Of a stretch of DNA of 64,000 nt, positions 3,560-57,003 are shown in pieces (within the stretch, counting starts at the first letter, position 1; the number at the start of each line of letters is the position of its first letter). Source of the DNA: an uncultured bacterium (lineage in GTDB: Bacteria > Patescibacteriota > Minisyncoccia > Phycocordibacterales > Phycocordibacteraceae); the NCBI GenBank assembly GCA_963851445.1, contig CAWKPH010000002.1, positions 25,716 through 89,715 of the forward strand. Reading direction: 5' to 3'. The notes under the pieces are model-generated. The model saw nothing but the letters and a program-made list of their open reading frames with translations, did no database searches and was not told where the DNA came from. The position numbers were made by a program, and so were the translations under genes.

Positions 3560-3631
3560 TGGGAGATCGTCTAACGGTAGGACAGCGGCCTTTGAAGCCG
3601 TGAATCTAGGTTCGATCCCTAGTCTCCCAGC
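3560..3631 (+). tRNA. tRNA-Gln (anticodon UUG)
   Basis: Cloverleaf folded by hand: acceptor TGGGAGA/TCTCCCA with a U1:A72 pair and G73, D-stem GTC/GAC, anticodon stem GCGGC/GCCGT, loop CTTTGAA (anticodon TTG), T-arm CTAGG-TTCGATC-CCTAG. Confidence 0.8.
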
Positions 3632-4149: not shown

Positions 4150-4851
4150 GCGGCCGACTCAGGAGAGTCGCCGATACAATCAATTGCAGTAGCCGACGAC
4201 GGCACCGTCTTTTTCTCCACCGAAAACCGGGTCTTTGCTCTGCTGGATGGGGGAGCGTTGTCGATCGTCAACAACAACGGGGGCGAGTTGCGGATCCGCG
4301 AGGGATACCTCTACGTGCTCAATCCAAAGGGCCCGCTCCTATTCCGGGTCAGTCCCACGTCGAAACAAATCTTCGCCGGAGGAGGTCAATGAAAATCGTC
4401 AGATTGCGACTGAGATCGGGACCAATTCAGCAGATTGAAGCGGGACCTCCGCCTCTCGAATCAAGCGGGTCGATTCTGCGTCAGGAGACGATCGAACCTG
4501 TCGACCATCGCCCACGCGAGTCTTTCGCGGAATGACATTGCTGCTTCTCTATCCTCGTCGTACGCGACACCAACAGACAGGTATTTTCTCACCGAGTCTC
4601 TGAGCGCGGTGTCCCCGACAAGGATTGCCGCGACATCATCTATAGATAGTGAATTGACGTCGTGTCTGTCCCGATCTGACTCCCCAGACACCGACGCAAA
4701 CCAGCTATCTATAGCAGCTTTGACGTCATGCCGCCTGCCCAGGGGATCATTGTTAATAATATTTGGAGAAGTATTCCTTTCGTAACTTTGCATTTGCCTA
4801 GAATGCTAACACGATTTTCAGTCTTCGGCGCCATCGATCGTGTGGACAGCA

Positions 4852-5493
4852 TTATCGCAAGCCAACATTATTTTTCCGATCGTTCGCCTTATCAAGGACG
4901 TCGCGCCGCGCCGCCGCGCTGCGGTCGCCAGTGTCCAGACCGCGCTGCCTATGATCGCCATTAATCGCAACGCGAATTGACCGAAGCGCCTCGGCGTAAA
5001 GTCCTCGACGTGCCTCATCCTGCGCCCACCGAAATTGTTCATAAGCATCCGTGGCGGAGGGATTCCTACCAATAACTACAAGATTGTTTATACCTTCATC
5101 CAACACCCCAAGACGTTCGGATAGATCACTGAAACCCCATTCCAAAGCCGAAACGATTTCGCGGCTTGAATCGCGGATCTCGGACTCGATACCGGAGAGG
5201 CCTTTGCGAACTGTGTTGTCAAGGTCGGTGATGCTCTCACGCACCTCCAGGTTTGTCCGCGCGACATCACTGAGGCGGCCCGAAAGCAATTCGTTTCCAT
5301 CGGCCATGTTTTTGGAAACCTGGAGTCCGATTTCCTTTAGATCATCTATGCTAGCCACAAGCTCTCTTGTTTGACGGTCGGCGATAAAGCCAATACCGCG
5401 CATCTGAAAGCGGTACCTCATCCATTGGGGATAGGTGAAATTAGTTTTGACGTTGTATTCGTAGTTGTACCTGAGGTCGTCAATAAAAGACAT
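4852..5493 (-). CDS. hypothetical protein (213 aa) within the GC-shifted island
   Basis: Intact ORF preceded by GGGAG about 8 nt upstream of the ATG on the minus strand. No family recognised. Confidence 0.35.
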   Translation of the reverse strand: MSFIDDLRYNYEYNVKTNFTYPQWMRYRFQMRGIGFIADRQTRELVASIDDLKEIGLQVSKNMADGNELLSGRLSDVARTNLEVRESITDLDNTVRKGLSGIESEIRDSSREIVSALEWGFSDLSERLGVLDEGINNLVVIGRNPSATDAYEQFRWAQDEARRGLYAEALRSIRVAINGDHRQRGLDTGDRSAAARRDVLDKANDRKNNVGLR

Positions 5494-5584
5494 TATCCGA
5501 TCTCCCAGAGAAATGTCGCTGTATAAAGTTCACTATCAACAGGTGGAAAATGGTGGCCAGTAATACACATTGTATACTGTGATC

Positions 5585-6025
5585 ATGTCTGAAGCACCGC
5601 GATTTACACGTGCTGTCGATCCGGAAAGTCGCCGCGAAGCGAGAGTCGAAGTTCTCAAGGGTCGTGTTGACGGAATCTTAGCGGGCACTTTTCTATTTGC
5701 GCAACGAACGATTGAGCAGCTCCAACAATACATGGCCGATCCCTCGGAGGTAAGCGCCACTGGCCAGGCGCCAGCTTGGATGAATGACGAGCTCATTCGA
5801 GAGTTGGCCCAGGCGGAGGTGAGAAATCAACTCACCCGCGCCAAAGACGTACTTGCGGCAGGCTACCCAGTTAACGCAGAGGCTTGGTTGCATGGAGTTG
5901 AGGAGCAAATCAAGTTGCATGAATCGCTTGGCCGTCTGACAGCTGAGGAGGCGGCGGACTTTGAGTCCGAAGTAGCGGAAATCAGAAATGGTCCGGACGA
6001 TCCGACCCAGGAGGACTCGGAATGA
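5585..6025 (+). CDS. hypothetical protein (about 147 aa), divergent from 4852–5493
   Basis: ORF track gives 5570–6025. A -10-like TATACT at 5572–5577 suggests a near-leaderless start at the second Met (5585). No family recognised. Confidence 0.3.
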   Translation: MSEAPRFTRAVDPESRREARVEVLKGRVDGILAGTFLFAQRTIEQLQQYMADPSEVSATGQAPAWMNDELIRELAQAEVRNQLTRAKDVLAAGYPVNAEAWLHGVEEQIKLHESLGRLTAEEAADFESEVAEIRNGPDDPTQEDSE

Positions 6026-6299
6026 TCCCAACGGTGGATATTGCATAAGGGAAAGGGTCTTGGATTCGTGTTCCGCCGCCGCTGATTGGGTCGTCGACCT
6101 GCACGCTCCGGTGATTCCGACGCGCCCTGGCAAAGACTTAGGTCGGTTCGCGCGGAACTAAGCCGCAATCGTATGCGCGTGACGCATAGAGCACCGTCGT
6201 GCGCCAAACGGCCACCGACCCCAAAATCAATCCGGACCTCCCGCGCATTCGGGAGCGCCGGAATGGTTCCGACGCTCCCGTCATGCACGGGAGATTTCA

Positions 6300-6506
6300 A
6301 TGAACAGTACAGTTCTTTCCAAGCCGCGGGCCGACGTGCACCAGGCCGTCACCGACAAGATCATCACCGCCATCGAAGCGGGTGCCGGGGAGTTCGTCAT
6401 GCCTTGGCATCACAAGGGGCCAGCCAACGGCGGACAGGGTGGTGCGTCGGCCACGACCGGCTTCCCATACACAAGCCCATCCGGCGAGGAGAGCGCCATA
6501 GCCTGA
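6300..6506 (+). pseudogene. N-terminal fragment of an ArdC-like (antirestriction, DUF1738-type) protein
   Basis: 'SKPRADVHQAVTDKIITAIEAGAGEFVMPW' matches the conserved ArdC N-terminal pattern (DVYQ.VTD.II.A.E.G…PW). The reading frame then degenerates and stops after 68 aa. The DNA is very GC-rich. Confidence 0.45.
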
Positions 6507-6681
6507 TCGAGGTGGTTTGCGATGACTCCAAGCCCCTTCGGGCGTTGAGGGGGTGCCGGAAGATTGCCTGGTGCATCGAGGTCCCATGGCGAATAACCAA
6601 ACGGTGGCAATCAATTTCCAGGAGACCATATTGGTATCAACCGGCAATGACAACAATTGAGAGATATGTTAACTTTTCACT

Positions 6682-7131
6682 ATGGAATCATCACCTGATA
6701 CGAACGGTCCTAGTCCACGTACAAGGAAGGAAGATACAAAGTCAAAGCGCGCTTTAAGCTATGCGGCCGTTTCGGTTGCATTATTGCTATTGATAATCCT
6801 TACTGTCGGTGGATATATTCTACGCTCGTCATATTACCAACAAAAGCCAGCTGTAGATGTACAGACACTAAATCATTTTGTATGTCGTAGCTCGACATAT
6901 TCGATCTCCGTCTTCAATAATGGAAATGCGACGGGCGTATCGCTGGATGCGCCATCGGGACCAGTGACATTCTTAGGTCAAATTGGACCGGGTAACTATT
7001 TCACTCCCGAATCAGTTATCCCGTCTAGCTATATATCGTATTTATCGGAGCTGGGGACGTGCAAAAACTCCGATGGCTTGACGTTTTATCAAGTCTACAA
7101 GAGCGTTTCTACGAGCACATTGTCTCATTGA
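6682..7131 (+). CDS. hypothetical membrane-anchored protein (low-GC ORF embedded between GC-rich segments)
   Basis: 149 aa with one N-terminal TM helix (LSYAAVSVALLLLIILTVGGYIL) and then a Ser/Thr-rich domain. The composition matches the host-like low-GC DNA. Confidence 0.4.
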   Translation: MESSPDTNGPSPRTRKEDTKSKRALSYAAVSVALLLLIILTVGGYILRSSYYQQKPAVDVQTLNHFVCRSSTYSISVFNNGNATGVSLDAPSGPVTFLGQIGPGNYFTPESVIPSSYISYLSELGTCKNSDGLTFYQVYKSVSTSTLSH

Positions 7132-8115
7132 GCGAATGAAATAAGGGCCGCCTATTGCAGGGCTAATCCGAACGATTGGACGGGATCTGAAAAGCGGGGC
7201 GCTGTCCGGGGCGGAAGCTTTAGACTACCTGGAACCTCGGCCCCGCCAGGACGGCTGGTGCCCCGCGCCAGTTCTCGAATGGGCTGATAGCTAGCCCGCT
7301 ACCATGCCTGCCACCGAAGCCGGCCATTGCGGCGATGAATTGGCCAGCGGCTGCGGGGCTGGCGGCAAGACCTTGGACCTGCTCCGCAGGATCAATCACT
7401 GTGGTCCCGCCGCTACCGTCAAGGGTGGTGACGACTAAGCGGGGGTTGGCCTCGCCCTGGGTCCATTCGGACTTGCCGACGACGCGGCGTCGGGTACTCC
7501 AGCTCTTGCGAGTGGTCCGCATGAAGTCCTTGAAGCGGCGGACCGGCTGAGACGCCGCTCTCCCGGAGGCACCCTTCATCATGACGTTCATATCCGTCCC
7601 ATCCGTAGGTGACCATGCACTCATCGCGGGTTGAGCAAAGTGTTCGGAAACCACACCTGCCTAGATTCCGGTCGGTTTTCACACTAGCTGCGAACGCTTT
7701 GAGCGTGGCAAGGGGCTGTTGTTGTCGAGTAGCTCGGCCCCTTCTCGTCTGACGAGCTCAGAGAACTTTTTATTGAGAAAGGAATAAGTTATTCAAATGA
7801 GGATCTCAATGAGATTATTTATCCACTGATTGAAAAGTATTTAGCAGCCGGATATGCCATAGCGATTGACGCTAACTGTTCAAGAGTAGTGGGTAATACT
7901 CTTACCGGTGATAACTTCCGAGAATTTCAATCTCGAGCAGAGATGGAAAATACCGGCTTATCTGTCATAAAATATGGAAAACGCCATAAAGGAAACTCGT
8001 GGTACGTATGGACGTATAACGACCATGCTCACTTAGGCTAGAAGCATTCTGGATACTTTTAGAAAGCCATCTTCTAATAATAAAAACGTCCCCGGATTTA
8101 AAGCCGGAGACGCGG

Positions 8116-8427
8116 TCAGAATTGCCTCGAATTAGGCGAAACATTCTCGAAATGTTCTATGGAGAAATCAATGCCCGGCTCCTCCTCTAGATAAACTCTG
8201 AGGCGCGTAACGCCGATCACAATACGATCGAGTGTGTAATGGGCCCCAAGCTTGAGGTAGCGATCAACAGCTTCGAGCCCGAGTATCCTCCAGCTGTATC
8301 GGATTGTTGCGCCCGGTCGAGTTCGAAAGTCCATTACTGGACCCAGTAGCATTCGAGGTCTACGCGGCGTGATGAAATCACACGCGGACTGATCCCCAAA
8401 GATTTGGGCAAAATTACCATCAGCCAA
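8116..8427 (-). CDS. hypothetical protein (103 aa)
   Basis: ORF only; no recognisable motif. Confidence 0.25.
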   Translation of the reverse strand: MADGNFAQIFGDQSACDFITPRRPRMLLGPVMDFRTRPGATIRYSWRILGLEAVDRYLKLGAHYTLDRIVIGVTRLRVYLEEEPGIDFSIEHFENVSPNSRQF

Positions 8428-8539
8428 AACTTATTCTCCCAGATGAACAAACGCAGAGAAAAGAATAGCATATACTGAATAAATTTCCAACATTCTCCCA
8501 AAAAGCCAATGTAATTGCTAAATCAGCTCATTATGCTGA

Positions 8540-8577
8540 AAAAGTGACACTTAAAAGTCTGTTTTCGTGTCACTTTT
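8540..8577 (-). terminator. probable terminator for 8666–9688
   Basis: 11-bp perfect inverted repeat AAAAGTGACAC…GTGTCACTTTT with a T-run on the minus strand. Confidence 0.45.
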
Positions 8578-8665
8578 GTCACTATTTGAGGCCTATTGGA
8601 TTCAGTACCGTACCCGGTACCCTTATTCTCAGAGAATTCCAGCGGTGAATGCAAAAAAATCTCAA

Positions 8666-9688
8666 TCAGTTAACAATTACCGTAGAGGTCACTGTAGCCG
8701 ACTGACCACTTGCGTTTGATACGGTAAAGATCGGCGCATACGTGCCTGCATTCTCATAGGCATGTGTAAACGTTGCTGAGGATTGAACACCTCCAGCATT
8801 AGCGGATTCGAGTTGATAGGGAACTGCAACCTCGTCTCCCCACCGTACTGAATACTGTAAATTAGTTGAGGCTCCAGTGTCTCCCACATTCACCGTCCAT
8901 GTTCCCGTTTCTCCAGGTGAAAGTTCGGCTGGGCCCTGAATTCCGTTAATTGTAAGTGGTAACCCGGGAATTCCGTTTCCTGAAGTCACTGTAAATGTCT
9001 CACTATTGCTTGTCCCATTCGCATTCTCAACTGAAACAGTGTACGTTCCGGGCCCTACCAAGCGTACATATTCTGGACACATAAGATCACCCGTACAATT
9101 TGGTCCTATCGAAGAGGGAACTGTGAAGGTTAATGTTTCAAGTGGATTTCCGCAATTAAGATTTGACGTGCACATGATATTCATGGTTGAAGTGACTGGA
9201 ATATTCGATATGGGGCCACCTCCAAAGAGGATTGTGTTATTTGAAGTAAAGCCATATCCGGTAATAGTTACCTGGGTGCCCACACTACCAGACGTAGGAT
9301 ACAGTGACTGAATGCTAACTGACGAATTAGGCGGCAGGGAACTACAGGTTAAGTTCTCAATAACCCCTCGGGTAATTGGGCCAACATATCCTGTTGGATT
9401 GACTCCATTCGCTTCCTGAAAACGCTTAACTGCGGCAAAAGTCAAAGGGCCAAAAACACCTACAGGAGAATAAGGAAAATAGGCTTTTTCTTGCAGATAT
9501 GTTTGAAGCGTCGTTACCTCATTGCCTGACGAGTAATCGGTAGAACCGTAGTAGATATCATTAGTGAGCGATATGCAGGCAATCGGAGGTGTCATAACTT
9601 GAGCGTGGGCAATTCCCTGAGGCGCTGACACGAAAACAAGTCCTGTCATTAGCAATATTCCAATATATTTTTTCATAGGTGTTGTCAT
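8666..9688 (-). CDS. secreted protein with a peptidoglycan-binding (PG_binding_1-like) domain followed by IPT/TIG-like beta domains
   Basis: Signal peptide (MKKYIGILLMTGLVFVSAPQGIAHA). 'LQTYLQEKAYF…GVFGPLTFAAVKRFQEANGVNPTGYVGPIT' is the PG_binding_1 signature. 'GTYTVSVENANGTSNSETFTV' resembles IPT/TIG repeats. Paralog of 12310–13785. Confidence 0.7.
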   Translation of the reverse strand: MTTPMKKYIGILLMTGLVFVSAPQGIAHAQVMTPPIACISLTNDIYYGSTDYSSGNEVTTLQTYLQEKAYFPYSPVGVFGPLTFAAVKRFQEANGVNPTGYVGPITRGVIENLTCSSLPPNSSVSIQSLYPTSGSVGTQVTITGYGFTSNNTILFGGGPISNIPVTSTMNIMCTSNLNCGNPLETLTFTVPSSIGPNCTGDLMCPEYVRLVGPGTYTVSVENANGTSNSETFTVTSGNGIPGLPLTINGIQGPAELSPGETGTWTVNVGDTGASTNLQYSVRWGDEVAVPYQLESANAGGVQSSATFTHAYENAGTYAPIFTVSNASGQSATVTSTVIVN

Positions 9689-12309: not shown

Positions 12310-13785
12310 GTGAGGTATAAGACAGGCATACTAATGAGGCATATTATGAAAAAAACAGCATACCTAAGCGTTATTTTTACTCTTGCAGCAGCCGGCCTAG
12401 CATCAACGGCCAATGCGCAGACGACCTATGTCTACCAGACACCGGGATACTCAACCCCTGCCTACGGGGTGGCGCCAGCATACAACGAAGTCTCTCCGTA
12501 TGCTGAGCTAGCACCAACCTCAGGCTGCATTGATTTGACCAATTATCTTGAACTCGGGTCAACCGATTCGGAAACTATAGGCCAAGTCACTCTTCTCCAG
12601 GAATTCTTGAACCGAACAGGATACCTTAGTGGCGTATCGGGTATTTTTGACACGGGTACCTACGGCGCAGTTATTAACTATCAAAATTCCCATGGTATTC
12701 CTCCAACAGGAACGGTGGGGCCCATAACTGGAGCCTCCATTAACAGTCAAAGCTGCGGCGCATCAGTTGAGCCGATAAACTACAATCCAACCCCATATCA
12801 GAATACAAATCCATATCAGTACAACCCTGGCTACTACGGTAATCCTATTTCGATCTCCTCACTCTCAACTAACTCAGGATATGCAGGCGAAATCGTAACG
12901 ATATATGGTTCAAACCTCTCAGGATTTAACGATGAGGTTCATATAGGGAATTCAACCGTTGCGCCCAATAGTACCTCGAATGATTCACTTTCATTTGTTG
13001 TACCGTCATTCAGCTACGGAACCTATGCCGTATACGTCTCTAACAGTTTTGCTACAAGTAACTCACTTCAATTCACCGTCATCGGCGGTAATAACAACTG
13101 TTACTCAGGAGAAACTTACCAGTGCAATTGCGTAACACCTCTTGTCTACAACTACGGCTCTTCGTATAACTACAACCCGAGCTATCCAAATCAATGTGGC
13201 AATGGATACTCGAGCGTATCGCTCAACTCTCTTAGTAGCACCTATGGATATCCAGGAGAAAGTGTGACCATCTTTGGCTCCGGATTCTCAAGTGATAACA
13301 GCGTCTACTTTGGAAACGAAACGCTCACCGATGTCTACTCAAGTGATAATGGTACGCAACTGACATTCACTGTCCCATCAAATTATCCTTCAGGAACCGT
13401 TAGCATTTCGGTTTCAAACGGAAATGGCTCAACAAGTAATTCGCTCACATTCACCGTAAATGGCTCAAACAACTGCAGTTCATATAACTCGTACAATTCG
13501 TACAACAATGACTGTATATGGAACGGTCAAAGCGGACAGCCAAACATCTCGTATATCTCACCCGCACAGTCCTACCCTGGATCTAACGTAACAATCGAAG
13601 GCTCCAACCTTTCGGAAGGAGACACAATCTACTTCAATAATTCAAGCGTCGTAAGTGGATCATCCTTCGACAATGGCACGCAGATGAATTTTACTGTTCC
13701 ATACCTCAACCCAGGAACATATAGCGTCTATGTAACGAATCAAAATAGGGAATCAAGCAATATTTTCAGCTTTACCATTGAATAA
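12310..13785 (+). CDS. secreted protein: PG_binding_1-like domain plus three IPT/TIG-like repeats
   Basis: Signal peptide. 'IGQVTLLQEFLNRTGYL…GTYGAVINYQNSHGIPPTGTVGPIT' is the PG-binding signature. Three ~90-aa repeats each end in '…SNSLxFTV'. Paralogous to 8666–9688. Confidence 0.7.
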   Translation: MRYKTGILMRHIMKKTAYLSVIFTLAAAGLASTANAQTTYVYQTPGYSTPAYGVAPAYNEVSPYAELAPTSGCIDLTNYLELGSTDSETIGQVTLLQEFLNRTGYLSGVSGIFDTGTYGAVINYQNSHGIPPTGTVGPITGASINSQSCGASVEPINYNPTPYQNTNPYQYNPGYYGNPISISSLSTNSGYAGEIVTIYGSNLSGFNDEVHIGNSTVAPNSTSNDSLSFVVPSFSYGTYAVYVSNSFATSNSLQFTVIGGNNNCYSGETYQCNCVTPLVYNYGSSYNYNPSYPNQCGNGYSSVSLNSLSSTYGYPGESVTIFGSGFSSDNSVYFGNETLTDVYSSDNGTQLTFTVPSNYPSGTVSISVSNGNGSTSNSLTFTVNGSNNCSSYNSYNSYNNDCIWNGQSGQPNISYISPAQSYPGSNVTIEGSNLSEGDTIYFNNSSVVSGSSFDNGTQMNFTVPYLNPGTYSVYVTNQNRESSNIFSFTIE

Positions 13786-13820: not shown

Positions 13821-13850
13821 AGACGCCCTCATATGAGGGCGTCTTTTTAA
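13821..13850 (+). terminator. rho-independent terminator (likely bidirectional)
   Basis: AGACGCCCTC-ATAT-GAGGGCGTCT followed by TTTTT. Confidence 0.7.
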
Positions 13851-14076: not shown

Positions 14077-14152
14077 AGAGACAGTATACGATAGGTAATA
14101 AGCTTATTTATCCACGGTGCATCTCTTTTCGGAAAAGATATACTGGGCTGAT

Positions 14153-14650
14153 ATGAGTCCGAATAATTCAAATAATATCCGCATTATCACTATTGTAGCA
14201 GTAGTTGTAGTTGCTCTAGGCGCTCTAGCGTATGCGCTTCTTGGCAAAAAAATGACCAACCCTCAAACACAGAGCAACCTAACGAGCCCCTCAACCCCCG
14301 CTACGGTAGCGCCAGGTCCCGTTGCAAGTGCACCCGTAACTTCCCAAACTCAGGAATATAAGGATGGAACTTACACGGCTACCGGTAGTTACTTTTCTCC
14401 CGGCGGAGACGAGAAGCTCGGCGTCACACTGACACTCAAGGATGACATTATCAGCGCTGCAAGCGTGACGCCTGAACCAGCAACCCCTAATGGTGAAAAA
14501 TTTCAAACTATTTTTGAACATAACTTTCAGCCACTCGTGGTCGGTATGAATATCAGTACGGTTCATCTCACAAAAGTTTCGGGGTCCTCGCTAACGGGAG
14601 GAGGATTCGATGATGCTCTTGCTCAGATTGAGGTAGAAGCGAAGAATTGA
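14153..14650 (+). CDS. membrane-anchored FMN-binding-domain protein (NqrC/RnfG/PplA-like flavinylation substrate)
   Basis: N-terminal TM anchor, Ser/Thr/Pro linker, then an FMN_bind-like domain ending in 'HLTKVSGSSLTGGGFDD', which resembles the [ST]GA[ST]-type flavinylation motif. An upstream GTG at 14117 is the alternative start. Confidence 0.6.
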   Translation: MSPNNSNNIRIITIVAVVVVALGALAYALLGKKMTNPQTQSNLTSPSTPATVAPGPVASAPVTSQTQEYKDGTYTATGSYFSPGGDEKLGVTLTLKDDIISAASVTPEPATPNGEKFQTIFEHNFQPLVVGMNISTVHLTKVSGSSLTGGGFDDALAQIEVEAKN

Positions 14651-14654
14651 TCCT

Positions 14655-15539
14655 GTGAATGCGGAAACGTTTGAAGCAATAGGTACGAAATGGCGGATTG
14701 AACTGCCTGACATGCCGCCTAAGAAACGTGATGCGCTTTTCGAAGGCATTAGAAGGCGCATCGATGTTTTCGATCATACTTATTCACGCTTCAAACATGA
14801 CTCGTTTATATCAGACATTGCGCGCACTTCAGGAGCCTATGAGCTACCTGCCGACGCGAGGCCCCTATTTGACCTCTACCGCAAGCTATACGAGCTTACA
14901 AATGGCAAGTTTACGCCGCTCATAGGTCAGGTGCTTTCCGATGCAGGCTATGATGCGCACTATTCCCTGAAGCCCAAGACTCTTTTGAAACCACCTGCAT
15001 GGGAGGACGCCCTTGTATACGAATTTCCCAAACTTACGGTTCTTGAACCAGTTCTTCTTGATTTTGGTGCAGGCGGTAAGGGATATCTTGTAGATCTAAT
15101 TTCAGAAATGATAGAAAGAGTTTTCGAGAATGATTCTAAAAGCATTCTTTCCTACAGCGTTAACGCAGGAGGTGATATACGCCTTAAGTCCAGCATCTCT
15201 CAAGGGGAACGCATTGGACTTGAACATCCGGATCATTCCGAACAAGTTATCGGTATCGCTACTATAAGCGAAGGGAGCATCTGCGGATCGGCAGGGAATC
15301 GCCGCACGTGGGGCGAATTCCATCACACGATTGATCCAGATACACTCGCTTCGCCGCAACACATTAAAGCTATATGGGTAACGGCTAAGAGCGCGCTACT
15401 CGCTGACTCTCTGAGCACGTGCCTCTATTTTGTTTCACCGGATTCTCTCCGCAGCTCGTATACCTTTGAGTATCTTATAGTGTATAAAGACCTGACTTTC
15501 GAATCCTCGCCTAATTTTCCAGCCAAACTCTTTACGTAG
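14655..15539 (+). CDS. apbE: FAD:protein FMN transferase (ApbE family)
   Basis: 'YSRFKHDSFISDI', 'GGKGYLVDLISE', 'GDIRLKS', 'HHTIDPDT' are ApbE family motifs. The GTG start overlaps the stop of the upstream gene. Confidence 0.8.
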   Translation: MNAETFEAIGTKWRIELPDMPPKKRDALFEGIRRRIDVFDHTYSRFKHDSFISDIARTSGAYELPADARPLFDLYRKLYELTNGKFTPLIGQVLSDAGYDAHYSLKPKTLLKPPAWEDALVYEFPKLTVLEPVLLDFGAGGKGYLVDLISEMIERVFENDSKSILSYSVNAGGDIRLKSSISQGERIGLEHPDHSEQVIGIATISEGSICGSAGNRRTWGEFHHTIDPDTLASPQHIKAIWVTAKSALLADSLSTCLYFVSPDSLRSSYTFEYLIVYKDLTFESSPNFPAKLFT

Positions 15540-15541
15540 CT

Positions 15542-17059
15542 ATGAATGCCATTGATCAACTACTCAACAAAATAACGATGTATCGATTAGTTCTGTCGAG
15601 CCTTGCAATACTCGCTGCAATTTCGCTTGTGCTTGCATTCTTTGGGATGCTTCCTTTTTCTGCAATCGATCTGGCCATTTCATTCGTTATTCTTATCTTT
15701 ACAGCACGCATAGTAAACGGCGCATGCGCATTGTTCTTCAAAGCATCACCAACTCCTGAATCGGCGTATATTACAGGTCTCATACTCTTTTTCATACTAT
15801 CGCCAATCCAAAATGCTCACGACGCACTTATTCTTATACTTGCTGCGACGATTGCGATGCTTTCTAAGTACCTCCTCGTACTACGCAAACAACACATATT
15901 TAATCCAGCTGCACTTTCAGCTTTTATTCTCACGCTTTGCGGCAGTGCAGCAGCATCATGGTGGGTTGCGACGCCTGTACTTCTGCCATTCGTTATCGTG
16001 GTTGGGCTCCTCATTGTTCGGAAAATTCGCAGGTTTGATTTGTTCTGCTCATTTTTTGTCACCGCCATCTTCGTATTTATCGTACACGCTGAACTCTCCT
16101 CAACGGATACTGCGTTATTCACGACTCTTATTCAGTTCCTCATATCATGGCCACTTATATTCCTAGGCACCATCATGCTTACTGAGCCACAGACGATGCC
16201 CACTAGTCATATCGATCGGATCATCTACGGTACCCTTGTTGGTTTTCTTTTCTCAATTTCATTCACCCTAGGGCCGCTTACCGCTACCCCCGAATTTGCA
16301 CTCATTGTTGGGAATATGTATGCGCTTGCGGTAAGTAACCGGAGGCGTATTACGCTCACACTCCATTCAATTACGCAGCTTGCTCACGATACGTATGAAT
16401 ATGCTTTCATACCAAACAATCCGATTTCCTTTGCACCGGGTCAATACATGGAATGGACGACACCACACGAAAAAGTTGATAAACGAGGTATTCGCAGATA
16501 CTTCACTATTGCTTCAGCACCTGGGGATACCTATATACGAGCAGGCATGAAGCTGCCCGTTGAAGGTAGCTCGTTCAAGAGGAGACTGCGTAGTATGAAA
16601 ATAGGAACCGCAATTTCTGCAGTAAATATTACTGGTCATTTCACGATGCCTAAAGATCCAAACGAGCCCATTGCTGCAATTGCTGGTGGCATCGGCATTA
16701 CGCCCTTTATGAGCATGTTTCGATATCTCCATAGTCGTGGCGAACATCGTGACATCGTACTCATTTATTGCGCACCCACGCCTCTGGATTTTGCATACCG
16801 AGAAGAAATTGATTCGTATAAGGACACCATTGGTCTTCGCGTCATATACCTGCCAACAGATTTCGAGGAGATGGTCGGATGGAAGGGGGCTTCAGGGTTT
16901 GTCACCGATACCCTTATAAAAAGAGAGATCAAGGACTTCAGTAAACGCCATTGGTATCTTTCAGGACCAAGCGCTATGGTTGACGCATATAAAAAGCTTA
17001 TTCGTACCCTTGGCACCCCAGACAACAAAATCAAAACTGATTATTTCCCAGGTTTCTAG
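15542..17059 (+). CDS. fusion protein: RnfD/NqrB-like polytopic membrane domain + ferredoxin-NAD(P) reductase-like FAD/NAD-binding domain
   Basis: N-terminal ~260 aa has multiple TM helices, the RnfD/NqrB-like 'QHIFNPAA' and an 'MLTEPQT' stretch that aligns with RnfD 'ILTDPVT'. C-terminal ~250 aa has 'RRYFTIASAP' (the RxYS FAD-binding motif) and 'IAGGIGITPFMSM' (NAD(P)-binding), like the NqrF/FNR module. Confidence 0.65.
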   Translation: MNAIDQLLNKITMYRLVLSSLAILAAISLVLAFFGMLPFSAIDLAISFVILIFTARIVNGACALFFKASPTPESAYITGLILFFILSPIQNAHDALILILAATIAMLSKYLLVLRKQHIFNPAALSAFILTLCGSAAASWWVATPVLLPFVIVVGLLIVRKIRRFDLFCSFFVTAIFVFIVHAELSSTDTALFTTLIQFLISWPLIFLGTIMLTEPQTMPTSHIDRIIYGTLVGFLFSISFTLGPLTATPEFALIVGNMYALAVSNRRRITLTLHSITQLAHDTYEYAFIPNNPISFAPGQYMEWTTPHEKVDKRGIRRYFTIASAPGDTYIRAGMKLPVEGSSFKRRLRSMKIGTAISAVNITGHFTMPKDPNEPIAAIAGGIGITPFMSMFRYLHSRGEHRDIVLIYCAPTPLDFAYREEIDSYKDTIGLRVIYLPTDFEEMVGWKGASGFVTDTLIKREIKDFSKRHWYLSGPSAMVDAYKKLIRTLGTPDNKIKTDYFPGF

Positions 17060-17087
17060 CAGGTTGTACACAGAGTGTACTGGTCAT

Positions 17088-17101
17088 CGAACAATTGTTC
17101 G
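17088..17101 (+). promoter_or_regulatory. LexA (Cheo-type) SOS box CGAACAATTGTTCG inside the lexA promoter spacer
   Basis: Perfect palindrome matching the Gram-positive SOS box CGAACRNRYGTTCG. It sits between TGGTCA (17081–17086) and TATACT (17104–17109), 15 nt upstream of the lexA ATG. A second palindrome GTACACAGAGTGTAC lies at 17066–17080. Confidence 0.6.
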
Positions 17102-17116
17102 AATATACTGAGAACG

Positions 17117-17692
17117 ATGGTTTCCAAATCCTCTGCTAATTATAAAAACAGAATCCAGAAATTCTACCGCACTCATAAGCGCATGCCATCTATTACAGAA
17201 GTCATGAGCCTATGTGGATTTACCTCACGAAGTTCGGCGTTTTACGTCGTTAACCAACTTGTACGGGAAGGAGTGGTTGAGAAAGACACCAGTGGGAAAT
17301 TAATACCGACCGGAAAACTTCATGAACTCCCGTTGGTGGGACATATTCGCGCCGGCTTTGCAGCGCCTGCGGAGGATGAGCTTGCCGATCTTGTGTCAGT
17401 AGGCGAATTTCTTATCCCAAATCCTACGAGAAGCTATCTTCTCAAAGTCGAAGGTGATTCTATGATAGATGCCGGTATTCAGGAAGGCGATATGGTCATA
17501 TTCGAACGCACTAAAGATGCAAAACCAGGACAGATGGTCGTGGCACTCACTGAGGATGGGTATACTCTTAAATTTCTTCGTAAGCACGGCACGCAACTTT
17601 ACCTCGAGGCGGCCAACGAGCGCTATCCGGACATTCGACCGATTTGGGGCGAAATAATTGGAGTTGTCACAGCTACTTTCCGAAAATACTAG
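17117..17692 (+). CDS. lexA: LexA repressor (wHTH + S24 peptidase)
   Basis: N-terminal winged-helix ('ITEVMSLCGFTSRSSAFYVVNQLVREGVV') and a C-terminal S24 domain with 'GDSMIDAGIQEGD' (Ser nucleophile) and a downstream Lys. The ORF track's GTG at 17075 is upstream of the SOS box, so ATG 17117 is preferred. Confidence 0.8.
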   Translation: MVSKSSANYKNRIQKFYRTHKRMPSITEVMSLCGFTSRSSAFYVVNQLVREGVVEKDTSGKLIPTGKLHELPLVGHIRAGFAAPAEDELADLVSVGEFLIPNPTRSYLLKVEGDSMIDAGIQEGDMVIFERTKDAKPGQMVVALTEDGYTLKFLRKHGTQLYLEAANERYPDIRPIWGEIIGVVTATFRKY

Positions 17693-17697
17693 AGCGT

Positions 17698-19008
17698 GTG
17701 TCCTATTCTTTTCCCAAGGCAATACTCCATTTCGACGGCGATTCGTTCTTTGCTTCAATCGAGCAGGTTATGGATCATCGTTTGCGTGGCAAGGTTGTTA
17801 TCACCGGCGGCGAACGTGGCGCGGTGACATCGGTATCTGTCGAAGGGAAAAGGCTTGGCCTCGGGCGAGGCATGAGTTTGAAGGAGATAAAAATCCGCCG
17901 CCCCGAGGCGATTGTAGTCCCGTCAGATTATAGGTCTTACAGTATCTATGCCCAGCGTATGTATTCTATCGTCCGTACGTATACGCCTAGTGTTGAGGAA
18001 TATAGCATTGACGAATGCTTCGCGGACATCACTACTCTAGATCAAAGACTCGGTACCTCATACGAGGATCTTTCGCGCAAAATAAAAGAAGATCTTGAAA
18101 CATCACTGGGTATCACCTTCGGAGTTGGACTCGCGCCTACCAAAACACTTGCAAAAATCGCTTCAAAAGCAAATAAACCTGCTGGATTTACGAGCATAAG
18201 CAACTCCGAACAACTCCAGTATTTCCTTCAAAAGACCCCTATACATTTCGTGTGGGGGCTAGGAGGAGTCTCAGGCGTCAAACTTATGAAACTCGGTGTC
18301 GATAACGCATGGTTGTTTACGCAAAAGGATGAAACCTGGCTTTCGATGCACCGCCTAGGGAAAGCATATCGAGATATTTGGCTCGAACTTCGAGGTGAGT
18401 CGATCAAGTTTCTTGAAAATAAGACATTCGATGATGTTGGTTCGCTCATGCGCACACGTACCTTCACCCCGCCCTCAAAAAATCGTGAATTCATATTTTC
18501 TGAGCTATCGAAGAATGTCGAAGAGGTGTGCGAAAATGCACGGCGTCATGAGGTTAAGGCGCGTGCCATAAGTTTCTACTTAAAGACACAGGAATTTACC
18601 TACCACAGTGTTTCACTAAAACTCACTATTCCCGTTGCAAGTCCTACCGAGATTCTAAAGCATGTGCAGGAACATTTCGACGAAGTGTTTGCGCAGGGGA
18701 TTCTATACCGCGCAAGCGGCATTACACTCCATGCGCTTATAGCAGACCAAGCTCGCACACCAGATCTCTTTGGACAGATAGAGGCGCTTGAGAAGCGAGC
18801 ACGTTTCATCAAGGTTTTTGATGCAATAAATCATAAGTATGGACGCCACACGCTTGCACTCGCTTCAAGCCTCCATGCACTCAAGTATCGAGAAACGAAA
18901 TCGCGGGGTAGAAAACCAGATGGACTTTCTCCGCGCAGTTGTCTTGCACTTTCTATCGATCAGAAGCATAGAGCACTTCAGATACCCTACCTCGGAATCG
19001 CGAAATAA
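17698..19008 (+). CDS. dinB: Y-family DNA polymerase (DinB/Pol IV-like)
   Basis: 'ILHFDGDSFFASIEQ' is the Y-family N-terminal catalytic motif. The gene sits directly downstream of lexA. The ORF track starts at TTG 17644, overlapping lexA. GTG 17698 is the first in-frame start after the lexA stop, so the start is uncertain. Confidence 0.8.
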   Translation: MSYSFPKAILHFDGDSFFASIEQVMDHRLRGKVVITGGERGAVTSVSVEGKRLGLGRGMSLKEIKIRRPEAIVVPSDYRSYSIYAQRMYSIVRTYTPSVEEYSIDECFADITTLDQRLGTSYEDLSRKIKEDLETSLGITFGVGLAPTKTLAKIASKANKPAGFTSISNSEQLQYFLQKTPIHFVWGLGGVSGVKLMKLGVDNAWLFTQKDETWLSMHRLGKAYRDIWLELRGESIKFLENKTFDDVGSLMRTRTFTPPSKNREFIFSELSKNVEEVCENARRHEVKARAISFYLKTQEFTYHSVSLKLTIPVASPTEILKHVQEHFDEVFAQGILYRASGITLHALIADQARTPDLFGQIEALEKRARFIKVFDAINHKYGRHTLALASSLHALKYRETKSRGRKPDGLSPRSCLALSIDQKHRALQIPYLGIAK

Positions 19009-20444: not shown

Positions 20445-20972
20445 ATGGACCAGGATACTTCCCAAGCTCAATTCCTCCAGATTTATGACCTGTATGTACA
20501 GGATATATTCCGGTTCTGCGTTTTCAAGGTGAGTAGTCGCGAATTGGCGGAGGATCTGACTCAGGAGGTATTCACCCGGTATTGGCAAAGTATTCGTGCT
20601 GGTACCACTATCGTGAATGATCGCGCATTTCTTTATACGCTTGCGCGAAATCTCATCATCGATTGGTACCGTAAAAAAAAGGATTTGTCGCTTGAGGTCC
20701 TTACCGATGCTGGGTTTGAATTCCAGAGCAAGGACCATCAATCGATTACCATGAGTGCAGAGGTAAATGAAATACTACGGGTCGTGAACATTCTTGATGA
20801 GCATTCGCGCGAAGTCATGCTTCTACGCTTTGTTGAGGGATTTTCGCCAAGTGATATTGCCAAGATACGCGGAGAGACAGCGAATACTGTCTCAGTCCGT
20901 ATCAATCGGGCGATCAAAAAAGTTCAAGAACATATTCACGTTCAGGGCGATGGAAAGAAAGAAATATACTAG
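20445..20972 (+). CDS. ECF-type RNA polymerase sigma factor (sigma-70 region 2 and region 4)
   Basis: 'LAEDLTQEVFTRYWQSI…LARNLIIDWYRKK' is region 2; 'LLRFVEGFSPSDIAKIRGETANTVSVRINRAIKKV' is the region 4 HTH. Confidence 0.8.
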   Translation: MDQDTSQAQFLQIYDLYVQDIFRFCVFKVSSRELAEDLTQEVFTRYWQSIRAGTTIVNDRAFLYTLARNLIIDWYRKKKDLSLEVLTDAGFEFQSKDHQSITMSAEVNEILRVVNILDEHSREVMLLRFVEGFSPSDIAKIRGETANTVSVRINRAIKKVQEHIHVQGDGKKEIY

Positions 20973-20974
20973 CA

Positions 20975-22027
20975 ATGAAAAAAGAAGAAAAAATAATTAA
21001 AGATTTTATACAACCGCTCAGGAGCATCATTCTCAGCGATAAAAAAGCGCACGACATGCGTGAGCGTTTAATTGCATATACTGATCTGCATGCAATGCCT
21101 GCTTTAGGAATTAATAAAAAACCTCAACGCCCTGTTTTGCGCACTTCTTTCTCATTTTCGTACTCGCGCGTGGTTGCAGTTGCACTTGCGGTAGTCGTGC
21201 TGCTCGTAGGCGGAACTGGTATTACATTTGCTGCAGAGAATTCAGTTCCCGGCGATCCACTGTATGTCGTAAAAGTTAGTGTTGCAGAACCTATCCAGGG
21301 TGCATTTATTGGAGGTACCGAGAACAAAGCGAAATGGGAAAATACTCTTGCAGATCGTCGTTTGACAGAGGCTTCGACACTTGCCGTACAAAATAAATTA
21401 ACGCCCCAAACAAGTTCATACCTAGAGCAGCAAGTTGCTACTGATGTTGCTCAGTCTAATAATTATGCTGCAAAACTTGAAGCCTCGGGCAATACCTACG
21501 GAGCACTCGCTGTGCGCTCTGATCTCGATGCACGCCTCTCTGCCCATGAAGCAATACTCGCGCTTATTACACCACAAGCTGCTCCTGGTGGTGATGCGAC
21601 TACGACGCTTGCGGTCGTGAATTTTCTTGGACACGTAAACTCAATTGATACAAAGGTCGCGCAGGAAGAGATTGCAACTGAATTGACTCTTACTAATCCC
21701 AGTGCCGCTGCAACTCCTTCGTCCACGCCTAGTCCCACAACCTCTTCTTCAGATTCCTCAAATACCGCAATCGCGTATGTTGATGCACAAAACACTGCCA
21801 AACAGCACGAAGAGCGCGCAATCTTCAGTGCCCAGGCGAAATTGTTTGGCGTCCTACTAAGCACATCTACGACTGCTTCAACAAGTCCTCTGAATATATT
21901 TCCCATTACAACTGCCTCGACGACACCACCAGAAGGAAATGAATTTTCAAGCTCCACAGAGTACCATTTACGTTGGCATGCTCAGTTGCCGATTGCTATC
22001 CCCATCATGCAAGTCCCAGGCAACTAG
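20975..22027 (+). CDS. putative anti-sigma factor / membrane protein (DUF5667-like)
   Basis: Start overlaps the sigma-factor stop. Single TM segment (VVAVALAVVVLLVGG) followed by 'PGDPLYVVKVSVAEPIQ', typical of DUF5667 anti-sigma proteins. Ser/Thr/Ala-rich C-terminus. Confidence 0.5.
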   Translation: MKKEEKIIKDFIQPLRSIILSDKKAHDMRERLIAYTDLHAMPALGINKKPQRPVLRTSFSFSYSRVVAVALAVVVLLVGGTGITFAAENSVPGDPLYVVKVSVAEPIQGAFIGGTENKAKWENTLADRRLTEASTLAVQNKLTPQTSSYLEQQVATDVAQSNNYAAKLEASGNTYGALAVRSDLDARLSAHEAILALITPQAAPGGDATTTLAVVNFLGHVNSIDTKVAQEEIATELTLTNPSAAATPSSTPSPTTSSSDSSNTAIAYVDAQNTAKQHEERAIFSAQAKLFGVLLSTSTTASTSPLNIFPITTASTTPPEGNEFSSSTEYHLRWHAQLPIAIPIMQVPGN

Positions 22028-24563: not shown

Positions 24564-25082
24564 ATGGCTAATACTCAATTCTCGCAGGATCGCGGTCACT
24601 CGATCCTGGTCCGCAATGTCATTTTTGGTGTCGAGGACAGCCTTGTCTCTACGGTAGGTCTTCTCGCGGGCATGGCAACGGGCAATATTGAGACCTCGAA
24701 AATTCTCGCTATCGGCGTAATTTTTCTTTGCGTCGAAGGGTTTTCGATGGCAGCGGGGAGTTATCTTTCTGAACACTCAACCCAGGAATATGAAACTGGC
24801 GAAAAAGTGGAGAATAATGATCCCATACGAGGGGCCGTTACGATGTTCGTTTCATTCATAATTGCCGGATTCATTCCGATCGCACCATATCTTTTTCTTC
24901 CTCTACACGCTGGACTTATTACCTCCGTGATCGTCTCACTTATATTCCTTGGTGTACTCGGCTATGTTCTCGCAAAAATTTCTCATGTTTCCAAAATTGC
25001 CAACGTCGTTCGTATGGTGATCGTCGGTGGCATCGCTATTGTGCTTGGTATCGTTGTCGGTATATTATTCGGCGTTTCGTAA
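24564..25082 (+). CDS. VIT1/CCC1-family (iron/manganese transporter-like) membrane protein, short form
   Basis: 'GVEDSLVSTVGLLAGMATG' and the following TM helices resemble the VIT family. Confidence 0.6.
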   Translation: MANTQFSQDRGHSILVRNVIFGVEDSLVSTVGLLAGMATGNIETSKILAIGVIFLCVEGFSMAAGSYLSEHSTQEYETGEKVENNDPIRGAVTMFVSFIIAGFIPIAPYLFLPLHAGLITSVIVSLIFLGVLGYVLAKISHVSKIANVVRMVIVGGIAIVLGIVVGILFGVS

Positions 25083-26669: not shown

Positions 26670-29450
26670 ATGGCCATCGAAGGAGTAACAAAACCTCTTA
26701 ATTCTCCCGAAGAAGAGCTCGCGCATCTACGAGAACAGATTGCAACTAAGGAGCAAGAACTTAAGGCGCTTAGGCAAGAACAACCGCGCGCTATTGTTGC
26801 GCACGAACAGATTTTGAATCATCGCTATCAACCCGCAGAGGATATTCTCACTCCCTCGTATCGACTTTCTGAAGAGCAGGCTAGTGAAATAGCACTAAAT
26901 CTTGAGCCTGAGAGCGATGACGAGACGATGGTTGAACTACGAAATATCATGGAAGAAAAAGGCGTAAAAAATGCGTTTTCGGTGCTCGAGAAACTCAATA
27001 GCCCTCATCTCGAGGACGACTTCCACCGTTTTCTAGTCCAGTACGTCATAGCGGGGATGCAAGTAAAGGGTTTCAGCGAGAGTCAGCCAACATGGAAGGC
27101 GCTCCATGTCACTCTCTATGAAATCGCGCTGCCTGAGCCTGACCGCCAAAATGATGATGGGCGTGCTAAGACTCTCAAAGAACTTATTTCAGCGATGGAG
27201 CAATTCTATTCCGGTATGCTCTCCGTTGGCGAGGCGTATGCAGGCGAACCTGCCTATTTTTCTCTTGAGCTTGCGGTACCAATAGATCGTTCACATCTTA
27301 ATTTTTATGCTGCCATCCCAAATGGTCGTCGTGATCTTTTCGAAAAACAACTTCTTGCGATTTTCCCGCATGCCCACATCACGCCGCAACCAAATGATTA
27401 CAATGTCTTCGTTCAGGATGCTTATTCAGTTGGCTCAACTGCGCAACTCACTCAGCGTCCGATGCTGCCGCTTAAGGACTACAACGATTTCGATTACGAT
27501 CCTTTGAATTCTATTTTAAACGCGTTTGCGAAGATCGGTGCAGAAGATGAGGGTGCTGCCCTTCAGATAGTCATCGAACCCGCAGGCGATCGCTATATCA
27601 GGCATTACCGTCGGGTTCTTGAAGAACTTCAAAAAGGAGTGCGTCCTTCCACTGCGCTTTCGCTGCCTGAATCGCTTGCCGGAGAACTTATTCGTGAGGC
27701 AGGGACACTTTTTGGAAAGCAAAAAGAAGTTAAGCGCGAAGAGGCAGACCAGGGAGTAATAGAGTTAGTGGAGAAAAAAATGGCAGCACCTGTTGTTAGC
27801 ACGAATATACGCATTGTCGTCTCTTCCAAGAGCCCATCCCATGCAACGCAGATTCTCGATGAGCTTGAATCCTCGTTCAATCAGTTTGAGAATACGCGAG
27901 GAAATAGGGTCATATTTAAAAGGGCACAGAAAGCGAGTGCAAGTCAACTTTTTCATAATTTCACGTACCGGATTTTTTCTCATGCGGCAGAGATGCAGCT
28001 TTCTCTACGTGAACTTACAACACTCTTTCATTTCCCCCCAAAGGGTATCGAATCTTCGCCGCATCTCAAGCAATCTCGTTCAACAGTTGCGGCAGCCCCT
28101 GTGGAGCTTCCGCGTGAAGGTCTCACACTTGGAATAAATACCTATCGTGGTCAATCAACGGAGGTTAAGTTGGCAGATGCTGATCGCTTGCGCCACCTCT
28201 ACGTTATTGGACAGACCGGAACTGGAAAAACTGGATTCCTCAAAACTCTCATTGAACAGGACATCCGTAATGGTGCCGGCGTCTGCTTTATCGATCCGCA
28301 TGGAAACGACATTCTCGACGTGCTTGCAAGTATTCCGCCTGAGCGCTATGAGGACGTTATCTATTTCGATCCTGCTTATATTCCACGGCCATTTGGTTTG
28401 AATCTTCTTGAATACGATCCAATGCATCCTGAGCAGAAGACTTTTATTGTAAATGAAATCCTTGCAATCTTCAGGCGTCTCTACGGAGATGTGCCAGAGT
28501 CAATGGGTCCTGCATTCGAACAATACTTCCGCAATGCAACGTTACTTGTTATGGAAGATCCTGCATCCGGTTCAACGATGATGGATATTGGTCGTGTACT
28601 TTCTGATGCGAATTTCCGGGCCTTAAAACTTTCGCGCAGTATGAATCCAGTTGTAAACCAATTCTGGACTGAAATTGCGACCAAGGCGGGTGGCGACGCT
28701 TCGCTTGAAAATATTGTGCCCTACATCACAAATAAGTTCGATGACTTTACGGCTAATGATTTTATGCGCCCGATTGTTGGACAACAGAATTCCTCATTCA
28801 ATTTTCGAGATATTATGGATTCGAAAAAAATACTTCTCGTCAATCTCTCAAAGGGACGTCTCGGGGAACGTAATGCAAACCTCCTCGGTCTCGTTTTAGT
28901 CGGCAAGATCTTTATGGCGGCACTTTCACGCGCTGACGATCCACGCGCTAATTTTCCACCATTCTATCTGTATATAGATGAATTCCAGAACATTACGACC
29001 GACAGTATCCCGGGTATTCTTTCGGAAGCTCGTAAATATAAACTTTCTCTTACGATTGCACACCAGTTCCTTGCACAGATTGATGAAAAGATTCGCGATG
29101 CAGTTTTTGGTAATGTTGGTTCGATGGCGGTGTTCCGCGTGGGAGAGGAGGATGGTGAATTCTTTTCAAAGCAGTTCGCCCCAGTATTTGAAGCATCTGA
29201 TTTTGTAAATATACAGAATCGTGAAGCATATCTACGCATACTTGCGGGGGGAGTTCCGCAGAAACCTTTCAACATTAAAACGCTTGATTTGGGTCAGGGA
29301 AATCCTGCACAAGTAGATGATCTACGTGAGTTGTCCTATCTCACGTATGGGCGTGACCGTGCTACAGTAGAAGGGAACATACGAGCTCGATATCTTTCTA
29401 ACGCAACACAGTCACCAGTACCCCTTGAACAGCCTTATCACTATTCGTAG
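26670..29450 (+). CDS. large soluble P-loop ATPase of the FtsK/HerA superfamily with a TraD/TraG/VirD4 (type IV coupling protein)-like C-terminal region
   Basis: Walker A 'YVIGQTGTGKTGFL', Walker B 'FYLYIDEFQNI', and a coupling-protein-like 'LSLTIAHQFLAQIDEKIRDAVFGNVGSMAVFRVGEEDGEFFSKQF'. The ~470 aa N-terminal region is unrecognised. No TM segment seen. Confidence 0.6.
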   Translation: MAIEGVTKPLNSPEEELAHLREQIATKEQELKALRQEQPRAIVAHEQILNHRYQPAEDILTPSYRLSEEQASEIALNLEPESDDETMVELRNIMEEKGVKNAFSVLEKLNSPHLEDDFHRFLVQYVIAGMQVKGFSESQPTWKALHVTLYEIALPEPDRQNDDGRAKTLKELISAMEQFYSGMLSVGEAYAGEPAYFSLELAVPIDRSHLNFYAAIPNGRRDLFEKQLLAIFPHAHITPQPNDYNVFVQDAYSVGSTAQLTQRPMLPLKDYNDFDYDPLNSILNAFAKIGAEDEGAALQIVIEPAGDRYIRHYRRVLEELQKGVRPSTALSLPESLAGELIREAGTLFGKQKEVKREEADQGVIELVEKKMAAPVVSTNIRIVVSSKSPSHATQILDELESSFNQFENTRGNRVIFKRAQKASASQLFHNFTYRIFSHAAEMQLSLRELTTLFHFPPKGIESSPHLKQSRSTVAAAPVELPREGLTLGINTYRGQSTEVKLADADRLRHLYVIGQTGTGKTGFLKTLIEQDIRNGAGVCFIDPHGNDILDVLASIPPERYEDVIYFDPAYIPRPFGLNLLEYDPMHPEQKTFIVNEILAIFRRLYGDVPESMGPAFEQYFRNATLLVMEDPASGSTMMDIGRVLSDANFRALKLSRSMNPVVNQFWTEIATKAGGDASLENIVPYITNKFDDFTANDFMRPIVGQQNSSFNFRDIMDSKKILLVNLSKGRLGERNANLLGLVLVGKIFMAALSRADDPRANFPPFYLYIDEFQNITTDSIPGILSEARKYKLSLTIAHQFLAQIDEKIRDAVFGNVGSMAVFRVGEEDGEFFSKQFAPVFEASDFVNIQNREAYLRILAGGVPQKPFNIKTLDLGQGNPAQVDDLRELSYLTYGRDRATVEGNIRARYLSNATQSPVPLEQPYHYS

Positions 29451-29452
29451 GT

Positions 29453-54139: not shown

Positions 54140-54186
54140 TCACGGCTTTCCTGCGGCTCCGGAATGGATGAGTCGTTATTTACTAA

Positions 54187-54432
<246 letters not shown>

Positions 54433-54450
54433 GCAGTAACGATTCTGGGC

Positions 54451-54894: not shown

Positions 54895-54897
54895 TAT

Positions 54898-56997: not shown

Positions 56998-57003
56998 ATC
57001 ACC

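Follow-up and report, generated by a model that had tools for sequence, protein, structure and literature searches.

A three-gene Patescibacteria operon with the domain content of a two-subunit Nqr/Rnf-like electron-transfer unit

Introduction

Can three genes that resemble parts of the six-subunit Na+-NQR and Rnf ion pumps make up an electron-transfer system of their own? This question is raised by a 64,000-nucleotide stretch of DNA (hereafter the window) from an uncultured bacterium of the Patescibacteriota, whose plus strand holds three tightly packed, co-directional open reading frames (ORFs) at 14117/14153–14650, 14655–15539 and 15542–17059. An initial annotation, made from the letters alone, had read these as an FMN-binding-domain protein, an ApbE flavin transferase and a fusion of an RnfD/NqrB-like membrane domain to an FNR/NqrF-like domain. 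The frames appear at these coordinates in the ORF list of the window, and all of the peptides quoted at the time (SGSSLT, HIFNPAA, MLTEPQT, RRYFTIASAP and IAGGIGITPF) are present. The same annotation proposed a minimal NAD(P)H-driven electron-transfer unit; our analysis supports this proposal, which correctly re-derives a published prediction, but its novelty was over-rated (PMC8238504, PMC11334425). With moderate confidence, we read the three genes as encoding a two-subunit Nqr/Rnf-like unit for flavin-based transmembrane electron transfer together with a dedicated flavin transferase.

Results

A three-gene operon of a published class

Méheust et al. 2021 (eLife; PMC8238504) described an 'NQR/RNF-like system' as a PF03116::PF00175 fusion within a flavinylation gene cluster, and reported 127 such clusters, mainly from Actinobacteria and the candidate phyla radiation. 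In the window, an N-terminal PF03116 and a C-terminal PF00175 domain lie in one protein, with ApbE and FMN-bind genes within five genes. As for export signals, the FMN-bind partner has an N-terminal hydrophobic anchor and three of its homologues have lipoboxes, while ApbE has no signal. By its domain content, the locus is a further copy of this genome-defined class, and its arrangement is not new. Fusion, ApbE and FMN-bind neighbours, lineages (which include the candidate phyla radiation), the missing NqrB/RnfD threonine and the proposed one-way path from NAD(P)H to the outside are all shared. Nothing essential differs; this lineage has SGSS in place of SGAT as its acceptor motif, and the FMN-bind protein of the window does not reach the Pfam FMN_bind threshold.

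Although the first gene had been placed from a GTG at 14117 (177 residues), its start is most likely the ATG at 14153 (165 residues), where all homologues and the public gene call P0121, whose 165-residue product is identical, begin. The gene ends in a TGA at 14648–14650, and a gap of 4 nucleotides, rather than the overlap described initially, separates it from the GTG start of the ApbE gene at 14655; the gap from the ApbE stop to the fusion start is 2 nucleotides. On the 5′ side, a small minus-strand ORF stands beside a G+C-rich hairpin with A and T runs on both sides (AGACGCCCTCA-TA-TGAGGGCGTCT, 13821–13844, no strand assigned), which was read directly from the sequence. The hairpin went unreported in a terminator scan, its loop being below the scan minimum, and is likely a bidirectional terminator between the operon and the upstream surface-protein gene and small minus-strand ORF. 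On the 3′ side, a separate lexA-like/Y-family polymerase gene pair has its own CGAAC-N4-GTTCG box. Given the short gaps, the upstream hairpin and minus-strand ORF, and the separate downstream pair, 14153–17059 reads as a three-gene operon.

The arrangement singled out by the initial annotation recurs in relatives. One genome per species was scanned, 80 related loci, mostly from Patescibacteria, were fetched, and partner genes were identified with iterated hidden Markov models. In 58 of the 80 loci the genes follow each other as FMN-bind, ApbE and fusion, in clusters of just these three genes; 75 loci have at least one partner gene and only 5 have none. A profile of the N-terminal domain matches 2749 cluster representatives at E ≤ 1e-3, and its top 150 matches are mostly about 500 residues long. 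Relatives occur in at least 549 species-level genomes, and the profile matches 609 clusters (50% identity) at E ≤ 1e-30; the family thus far exceeds the 127 genomes of the original description. Taken together, the matches to ApbE (7e-32), NAD_binding_1 (1e-16) and PF03116 (29.8 bits) and the conserved gene order amount to far more than chance.

The fused membrane subunit

The third gene encodes a protein of 505 residues. Its C-terminal part (residues 270–505 plus the stop codon; 16349–17059, plus strand) is a cytoplasmic FNR/NqrF-type FAD and NAD(P)H domain, as originally annotated, with an FAD motif RRYFTIAS at 16493–16516 and an NAD(P) motif AGGIGITPF at 16682–16708 (both plus strand). Pfam matches it to NAD_binding_1 (PF00175; 1.1e-16, 61.9 bits, residues 380–484) and weakly to FAD_binding_6. 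The N-terminal membrane domain (residues 1–265; 15542–16336, plus strand) scores 29.8 bits with NQR2_RnfD_RnfE (PF03116), above the cut-off of 27.7, in a match confined to residues 150–262. A profile of 20 N-terminal domains has RnfD of Azotobacter as its single PDB match (E 9e-5), and hhalign pairs the domain with E. coli RsxD at E 1e-5. The RnfD/NqrB fold proposed at the outset is confirmed over the whole domain by the fold evidence from the predicted AlphaFold2 structure (pLDDT 89.9). Lysine and arginine residues number 11 in the loops assigned to the inside and 0 in those assigned to the outside. This positive-inside count predicts a ten-helix domain whose two ends are cytoplasmic, placing the FNR domain inside and a tryptophan-containing loop outside, in agreement with the requirement of an NAD(P)H-binding domain.

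This short loop, predicted to face outward between helices 5 and 6, comprises the 12 residues 133–144 (CGSAAASWWVAT; 15938–15973, plus strand) and includes W140 and W141, which are invariant in 119 family sequences. At the same position E. coli RsxD aligns with approximately 76 more residues, among them the flavinylated SQAT187. Position 144 varies across the 119 sequences (T62/S29/N16/G6/V2/I1) and is not a conserved acceptor, and a [ST]G[AS][ST] motif occurs in only 3 of the 119 membrane domains. These alignments support the absence of the RnfD/NqrB flavinylation site from the fusion, as first claimed. We also considered T144 ('WWVATP') as a relic of this site and rejected it, even though MAFFT pairs it with 'SQATPLD' of RsxD: the position is N, G, V or I in 25 of 119 sequences, motif positions −2 and −3 are V and W, and an equally good alignment of WWV to WQWV puts T144 in the next helix. 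The membrane subunit likewise lacks the NqrB/RnfD threonine in the two-subunit AlphaFold-multimer model of Huang et al. 2024 (mSystems; PMC11334425), and the authors suggest that the covalent FMN of the partner samples the vacant site. The 119 sequences have no conserved Cys/His pairs in the membrane domain, so its cofactors, if any, are presumably flavins. The fusion has no Pfam match to a ferredoxin (2Fe-2S) domain.

The membrane and FAD/NAD domains are genuine homologues of NqrB/RnfD and NqrF, and our inspection covered 64 kb of the genome. The three genes could on these grounds be part of a canonical six-subunit Na+-NQR or Rnf pump whose remaining subunits are scattered elsewhere. Pfam scans of the 51 further large ORFs of the window argue otherwise, as they found no nqrA/D/E- or rnfA/B/C/E-like gene and no other Nqr/Rnf subunit, which, for the window, bears out the original statement that nqrA/D/E are apparently missing. 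E. coli RsxA/B/C/E/G also gave no phmmer match among the window ORFs, in a test that is insensitive, since RsxD was unmatched too. Moreover, the flavinylated NqrB/RnfD loop is deleted, the fusion lacks the 2Fe-2S domain of NqrF, the NqrB and NqrF parts form a single protein, and 58 of 80 genomes keep the cluster to just three genes. Méheust et al. call such clusters partial systems with one electron path (PMC8238504). We give a scattered canonical pump only the faintest chance.

The FMN-binding-fold subunit and its acceptor motif

The first gene (14153–14650, plus strand) encodes a membrane-anchored subunit of 165 residues with an FMN-binding fold, a candidate acceptor of the NqrC/RnfG/PplA kind. 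It has a transmembrane helix at about residues 9–30, a T/P/A/S-rich linker and a folded domain at residues 69–165; in the AlphaFold2 model the domain has a pLDDT above 90 and the linker is disordered. The best Foldseek matches of this domain in the PDB are 8p2a (probability 0.99), 3lwx (NqrC), 3o6u and 8p2b, with E-values of only 0.014–0.05. At the family level, 23 of 40 members match PF04205 at E ≤ 1, weakly (best 1.6e-5), and 10 of 40 homologues weakly match the NCBIfam PplA model. The family profile has the FMN-binding domain 8p2a as its top PDB match (E 0.05), with vSGSSLt aligned to VSGATYT, while hhalign against E. coli RsxG was not significant. This family-level and fold evidence, to which 8p2a and 3lwx contribute, supports the identification of the product as a divergent FMN_bind protein.

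The predicted flavinylation motif is V-S-G-S-S-L-T at residues 142–148 of the 165-residue protein (14576–14596, plus strand). S143, G144, S145, S146, L147 and T148 are invariant or nearly so among 40 homologues. Ser146 (14588–14590) is the predicted FMN acceptor because SGSS aligns with SGAT of 8p2a and because the equivalent position is occupied by SGAT (35) or SGAS (15) in the partners from other related loci. To this extent the suggestion that SGSSLT resembles a flavinylation site stands. Some related clusters hold two FMN-bind genes; L016 (1053–2090) has one with SGAS and one with SGSS, and in L065 (3180–4995) the two lie on either side of ApbE.

On which side of the membrane would this domain lie? 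Its linker is 61% T/P/A/S, lysine and arginine are slightly more frequent on the N-terminal flank of the transmembrane helix (1.89 vs 1.45), and in three related loci (L009, L022 and L059) a lipoprotein signal with a lipobox replaces the transmembrane anchor. Because of the anchor, the linker, the charge bias and the lipoprotein signals, the FMN domain is most likely outside the membrane.

A proposed electron path and the points that weigh against it

From the folds, motifs, topology signals and gene linkage described above, and with no other Nqr/Rnf subunit in the window, we infer a path in four steps, including its cofactors, its direction, the flavinylation and the acceptor. The 505-residue protein would oxidise NAD(P)H at its FNR-type FAD domain in the cytoplasm. 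Electrons would then traverse the membrane through the RnfD/NqrB-fold domain, presumably by a bound flavin, since this domain lacks both a covalent flavin and conserved Cys/His residues that could ligate haem or Fe-S centres. On the outer face they would pass to an FMN that ApbE would have linked by a phosphoester to Ser146 of the anchored FMN-binding subunit, and from there to some extracytosolic acceptor. Méheust et al. likewise propose a one-way electron flow that starts at NAD(P)H and ends at an extracytosolic FMN domain (PMC8238504).

Several points weigh against this assignment. The FMN-bind protein of the window has no PF04205 FMN_bind match of its own at E ≤ 1. Its motif, T-K-V-S-G-S-S, departs from the consensus D-x-x-[S/T]-G-A-[S/T] in having Thr for Asp, Ser for Ala and Ser as the acceptor; according to a flavinylation review, changing the Asp to Ala has minor effects and Ser is accepted with lower yield. 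The operon has no linked candidate for a terminal reductase or acceptor in the window, and none recurs in the 80 loci. Further Nqr/Rnf subunits could in principle be encoded in the genome beyond the 64 kb searched. A literature search, in which only Méheust et al. and Huang et al. were found to treat NQR/RNF-like systems, found no experimental work on their activity, cofactors or flavinylation, all of which are predicted. Finally, an ApbE that has no export signal is hard to reconcile with an acceptor domain outside the membrane.

ApbE without a signal peptide

The middle gene (14655–15539, plus strand) encodes an FAD:protein FMN transferase of the ApbE family with 294 residues, as initially annotated. 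Residues 10–264 match positions 2–250 of the 266 positions of PF02424 (7e-32), which is the whole catalytic domain. The protein begins at this domain, and an in-frame TAG at 14634–14636, 18 nucleotides upstream, closes the frame. Its N-terminal hydropathy is −0.16; the E. coli Ftp/ApbE lipoprotein signal, used as a control, gives 1.99. The same holds across the family: essentially all of the 69 linked ApbEs in related clusters (L003–L081) have neither a signal peptide nor a membrane anchor. The searched text of Méheust et al. and Huang et al. makes no mention of a leaderless ApbE (PMC8238504, PMC11334425), and relative to that text its occurrence beside an exported-looking acceptor appears to be new.

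Two gene fusions in related loci were considered as evidence on topology and rejected. The ApbE::RnfD-FNR fusion in L027 (4161–6425) has a run of masked bases inside, and the FMN-bind::ApbE fusion in L062 (3680–5014) is a frameshifted FMN-bind gene read into ApbE.

Cytosolic ApbEs that serve cytoplasmic FMN_bind domains are known, with only cytoplasmic substrates (PMC12052999). The FMN-bind domain of this operon might by analogy be cytoplasmic and receive its FMN in that compartment from the leaderless ApbE, as happens with the cytoplasmic fumarate reductase of Klebsiella pneumoniae. In that case it would shuttle electrons between the FNR domain and the membrane domain, the latter being the site of acceptor reduction or ion movement. 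The missing signal peptide, here and in essentially all related clusters, fits this arrangement, and the charge bias at the partner's transmembrane helix is modest. Set against it are the T/P/A/S-rich linker, as found in cell-surface stalks, and the periplasmic location of NqrC and RnfG, which share the architecture. In the published AlphaFold-multimer model the domain is docked to the outer face, at the position of the NqrB FMN site (PMC11334425). A cytoplasmic FMN domain is further disfavoured as the answer to the leaderless ApbE because of the lipoprotein signal peptides that replace the anchor in three partner homologues. Overall, we consider this cytoplasm-facing arrangement unlikely.

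How, then, might an outside FMN domain acquire its flavin? One tentative answer, which we hold to be possible though doubtful, is that a cytosolic ApbE throughout the class flavinylates the acceptor motif before or during export of the anchored or lipoprotein subunit. The motif lies 20 residues from the C-terminus of the FMN-bind protein. Flavinylation prior to export is feasible in principle, because a seven-residue motif suffices for target recognition by ApbE, according to the flavinylation review. Alternatively, ApbE may leave the cell by another route. If flavinylation does precede export, a surface flavoprotein would be made without FAD export machinery, by a biogenesis route that differs from the periplasmic or lipoprotein ApbE paradigm and is economical for reduced genomes.

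Ion pumping and the surrounding sequence

The window also holds an F-type ATP synthase operon at 53393–59331 (a, b, alpha, gamma and beta subunits by Pfam), and a Flavodoxin_2/FMN_red-type NAD(P)H dehydrogenase gene lies shortly 3′ of it at 60402–60971. The AtpD of the window shares 84–90% identity with proteins labelled Parcubacteria, Paceibacterota or Patescibacteria, and the host belongs to the candidate phyla radiation. The initial annotation tied the flavinylation cluster to this ATP synthase and to energy conservation, and RnfD and NqrB do belong to ion-translocating complexes. A redox-driven ion pump that helps to energise the membrane for the ATP synthase is nevertheless decidedly improbable. 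The ATP synthase operon lies 36 kb from the flavinylation cluster and is not linked to it, and NqrD/E (RnfA/E), which form the central membrane redox site of the pumps, are missing from the window. No sequence feature bears on ion binding, and electron export from the cytoplasm would by itself be depolarising. We found no support here for the proposed tie.

Around the 80 related loci, the recurrent neighbours are MacB-type ABC exporters, a histidine kinase, an ECF sigma/DUF5667 pair, and MsrA or MsrB (4 loci each); none was convincing as an electron-acceptor partner. In the window, 20445–22027, which lies 3.4 kb 3′ of the operon, encodes an ECF sigma factor together with a DUF5667 membrane protein that is probably an anti-sigma factor. 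Of the 80 loci, 9 have an ECF sigma gene and 5 a DUF5667 gene close to the cluster (e.g. L055:1886-2404 and L002:10201-11220), a recurrence that may reflect conserved synteny or regulation. Méheust et al. report VIT1 inside six NQR/RNF-like clusters and suggest a role in iron assimilation (PMC8238504). A VIT1-family iron/manganese transporter gene is found here at 24564–25082, 7.5 kb downstream and seven genes away, and any link with the operon is weak.

At 17066–17119, an exact Cheo-type SOS box (CGAACAATTGTTCG, 17088–17101), the sole match to this box in the window, and a second palindrome (GTACACAGAGTGTAC, 17066–17080) lie directly 5′ of the probable ATG at 17117 of the LexA-like S24 peptidase gene; the Y-family polymerase gene follows at 17644–19008. 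Two secreted proteins with a peptidoglycan-binding domain and PKD or IPT/TIG repeats, typical surface proteins of the lineage, are encoded at 8666–9688 and 12310–13785, one of them directly 5′ of the operon. Further away, approximately 5 kb beside a tRNA gene (3560–8660; tRNA 3560–3630) has a G+C content of 53–54% against about 46%. The ORFs of this region are all short and overlap one another on the two strands; neither of the two tested has a Pfam match, there is no rRNA, and the region may be a decayed or foreign insertion. Finally, 26670–32452 encodes a 926-residue protein with HerA/DUF87 and TraG/TraD C-terminal domains, followed by a 999-residue protein with no Pfam match, and may represent an ATPase module of a conjugation or type IV secretion-like system.

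Discussion

Our analysis places the operon among several known routes for moving electrons across a membrane. Relative to Na+-NQR (NqrA-F), it has no NqrA/D/E in the window and no 2Fe-2S domain, its NqrB and NqrF counterparts are fused, and the loop with the NqrB threonine is missing. Electron flow would presumably be one-way, whereas that of Na+-NQR is semicircular, and no quinone site is known here. Within Rnf (RnfABCDGE; RsxABCDGE in E. coli), RnfD is the best match of the membrane domain in sequence and fold, and RnfG resembles the anchored flavoprotein. In contrast to Rnf, RnfA/B/C/E and Fe-S subunits of the ferredoxin side were not found in the window, and the approximately 76 residues around the flavinylated Thr187 are absent. 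The extracellular electron transfer system of Listeria (Ndh2, EetA/B, PplA and FmnB) likewise combines a cytoplasmic NADH oxidiser with a surface FMN_bind protein that is flavinylated by ApbE, a modification that is predicted in our case. Its membrane step relies on quinone and EetA/B rather than an RnfD-like domain, and its FmnB, a secreted lipoprotein, receives FAD through a dedicated ECF transporter, whereas the ApbE described here is leaderless. The NOX/FRE-type ferric reductases and the bacterial NADPH oxidase SpNOX cross the membrane with a six-helix di-haem domain, unlike the RnfD fold of this family, which has no conserved His pairs.

The locus does not add a new kind of system. Its main value lies in being a clean test case and in the puzzle of where its ApbE is localised. 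The leaderless ApbE does not fit the current model of 'extracytosolic' flavinylation, a concrete discrepancy that can be put to the test. The class is widespread and we found no experimental test of it in the literature, which makes this tractable three-gene example a reasonable target for biochemistry.

To our knowledge, Patescibacteria have no respiratory chain, and for this reason a compact route fed by NAD(P)H and leading to the cell surface may matter to them. Such a route may be among the few ways in which these bacteria get rid of reducing equivalents, carry out iron reduction or repair surface proteins.

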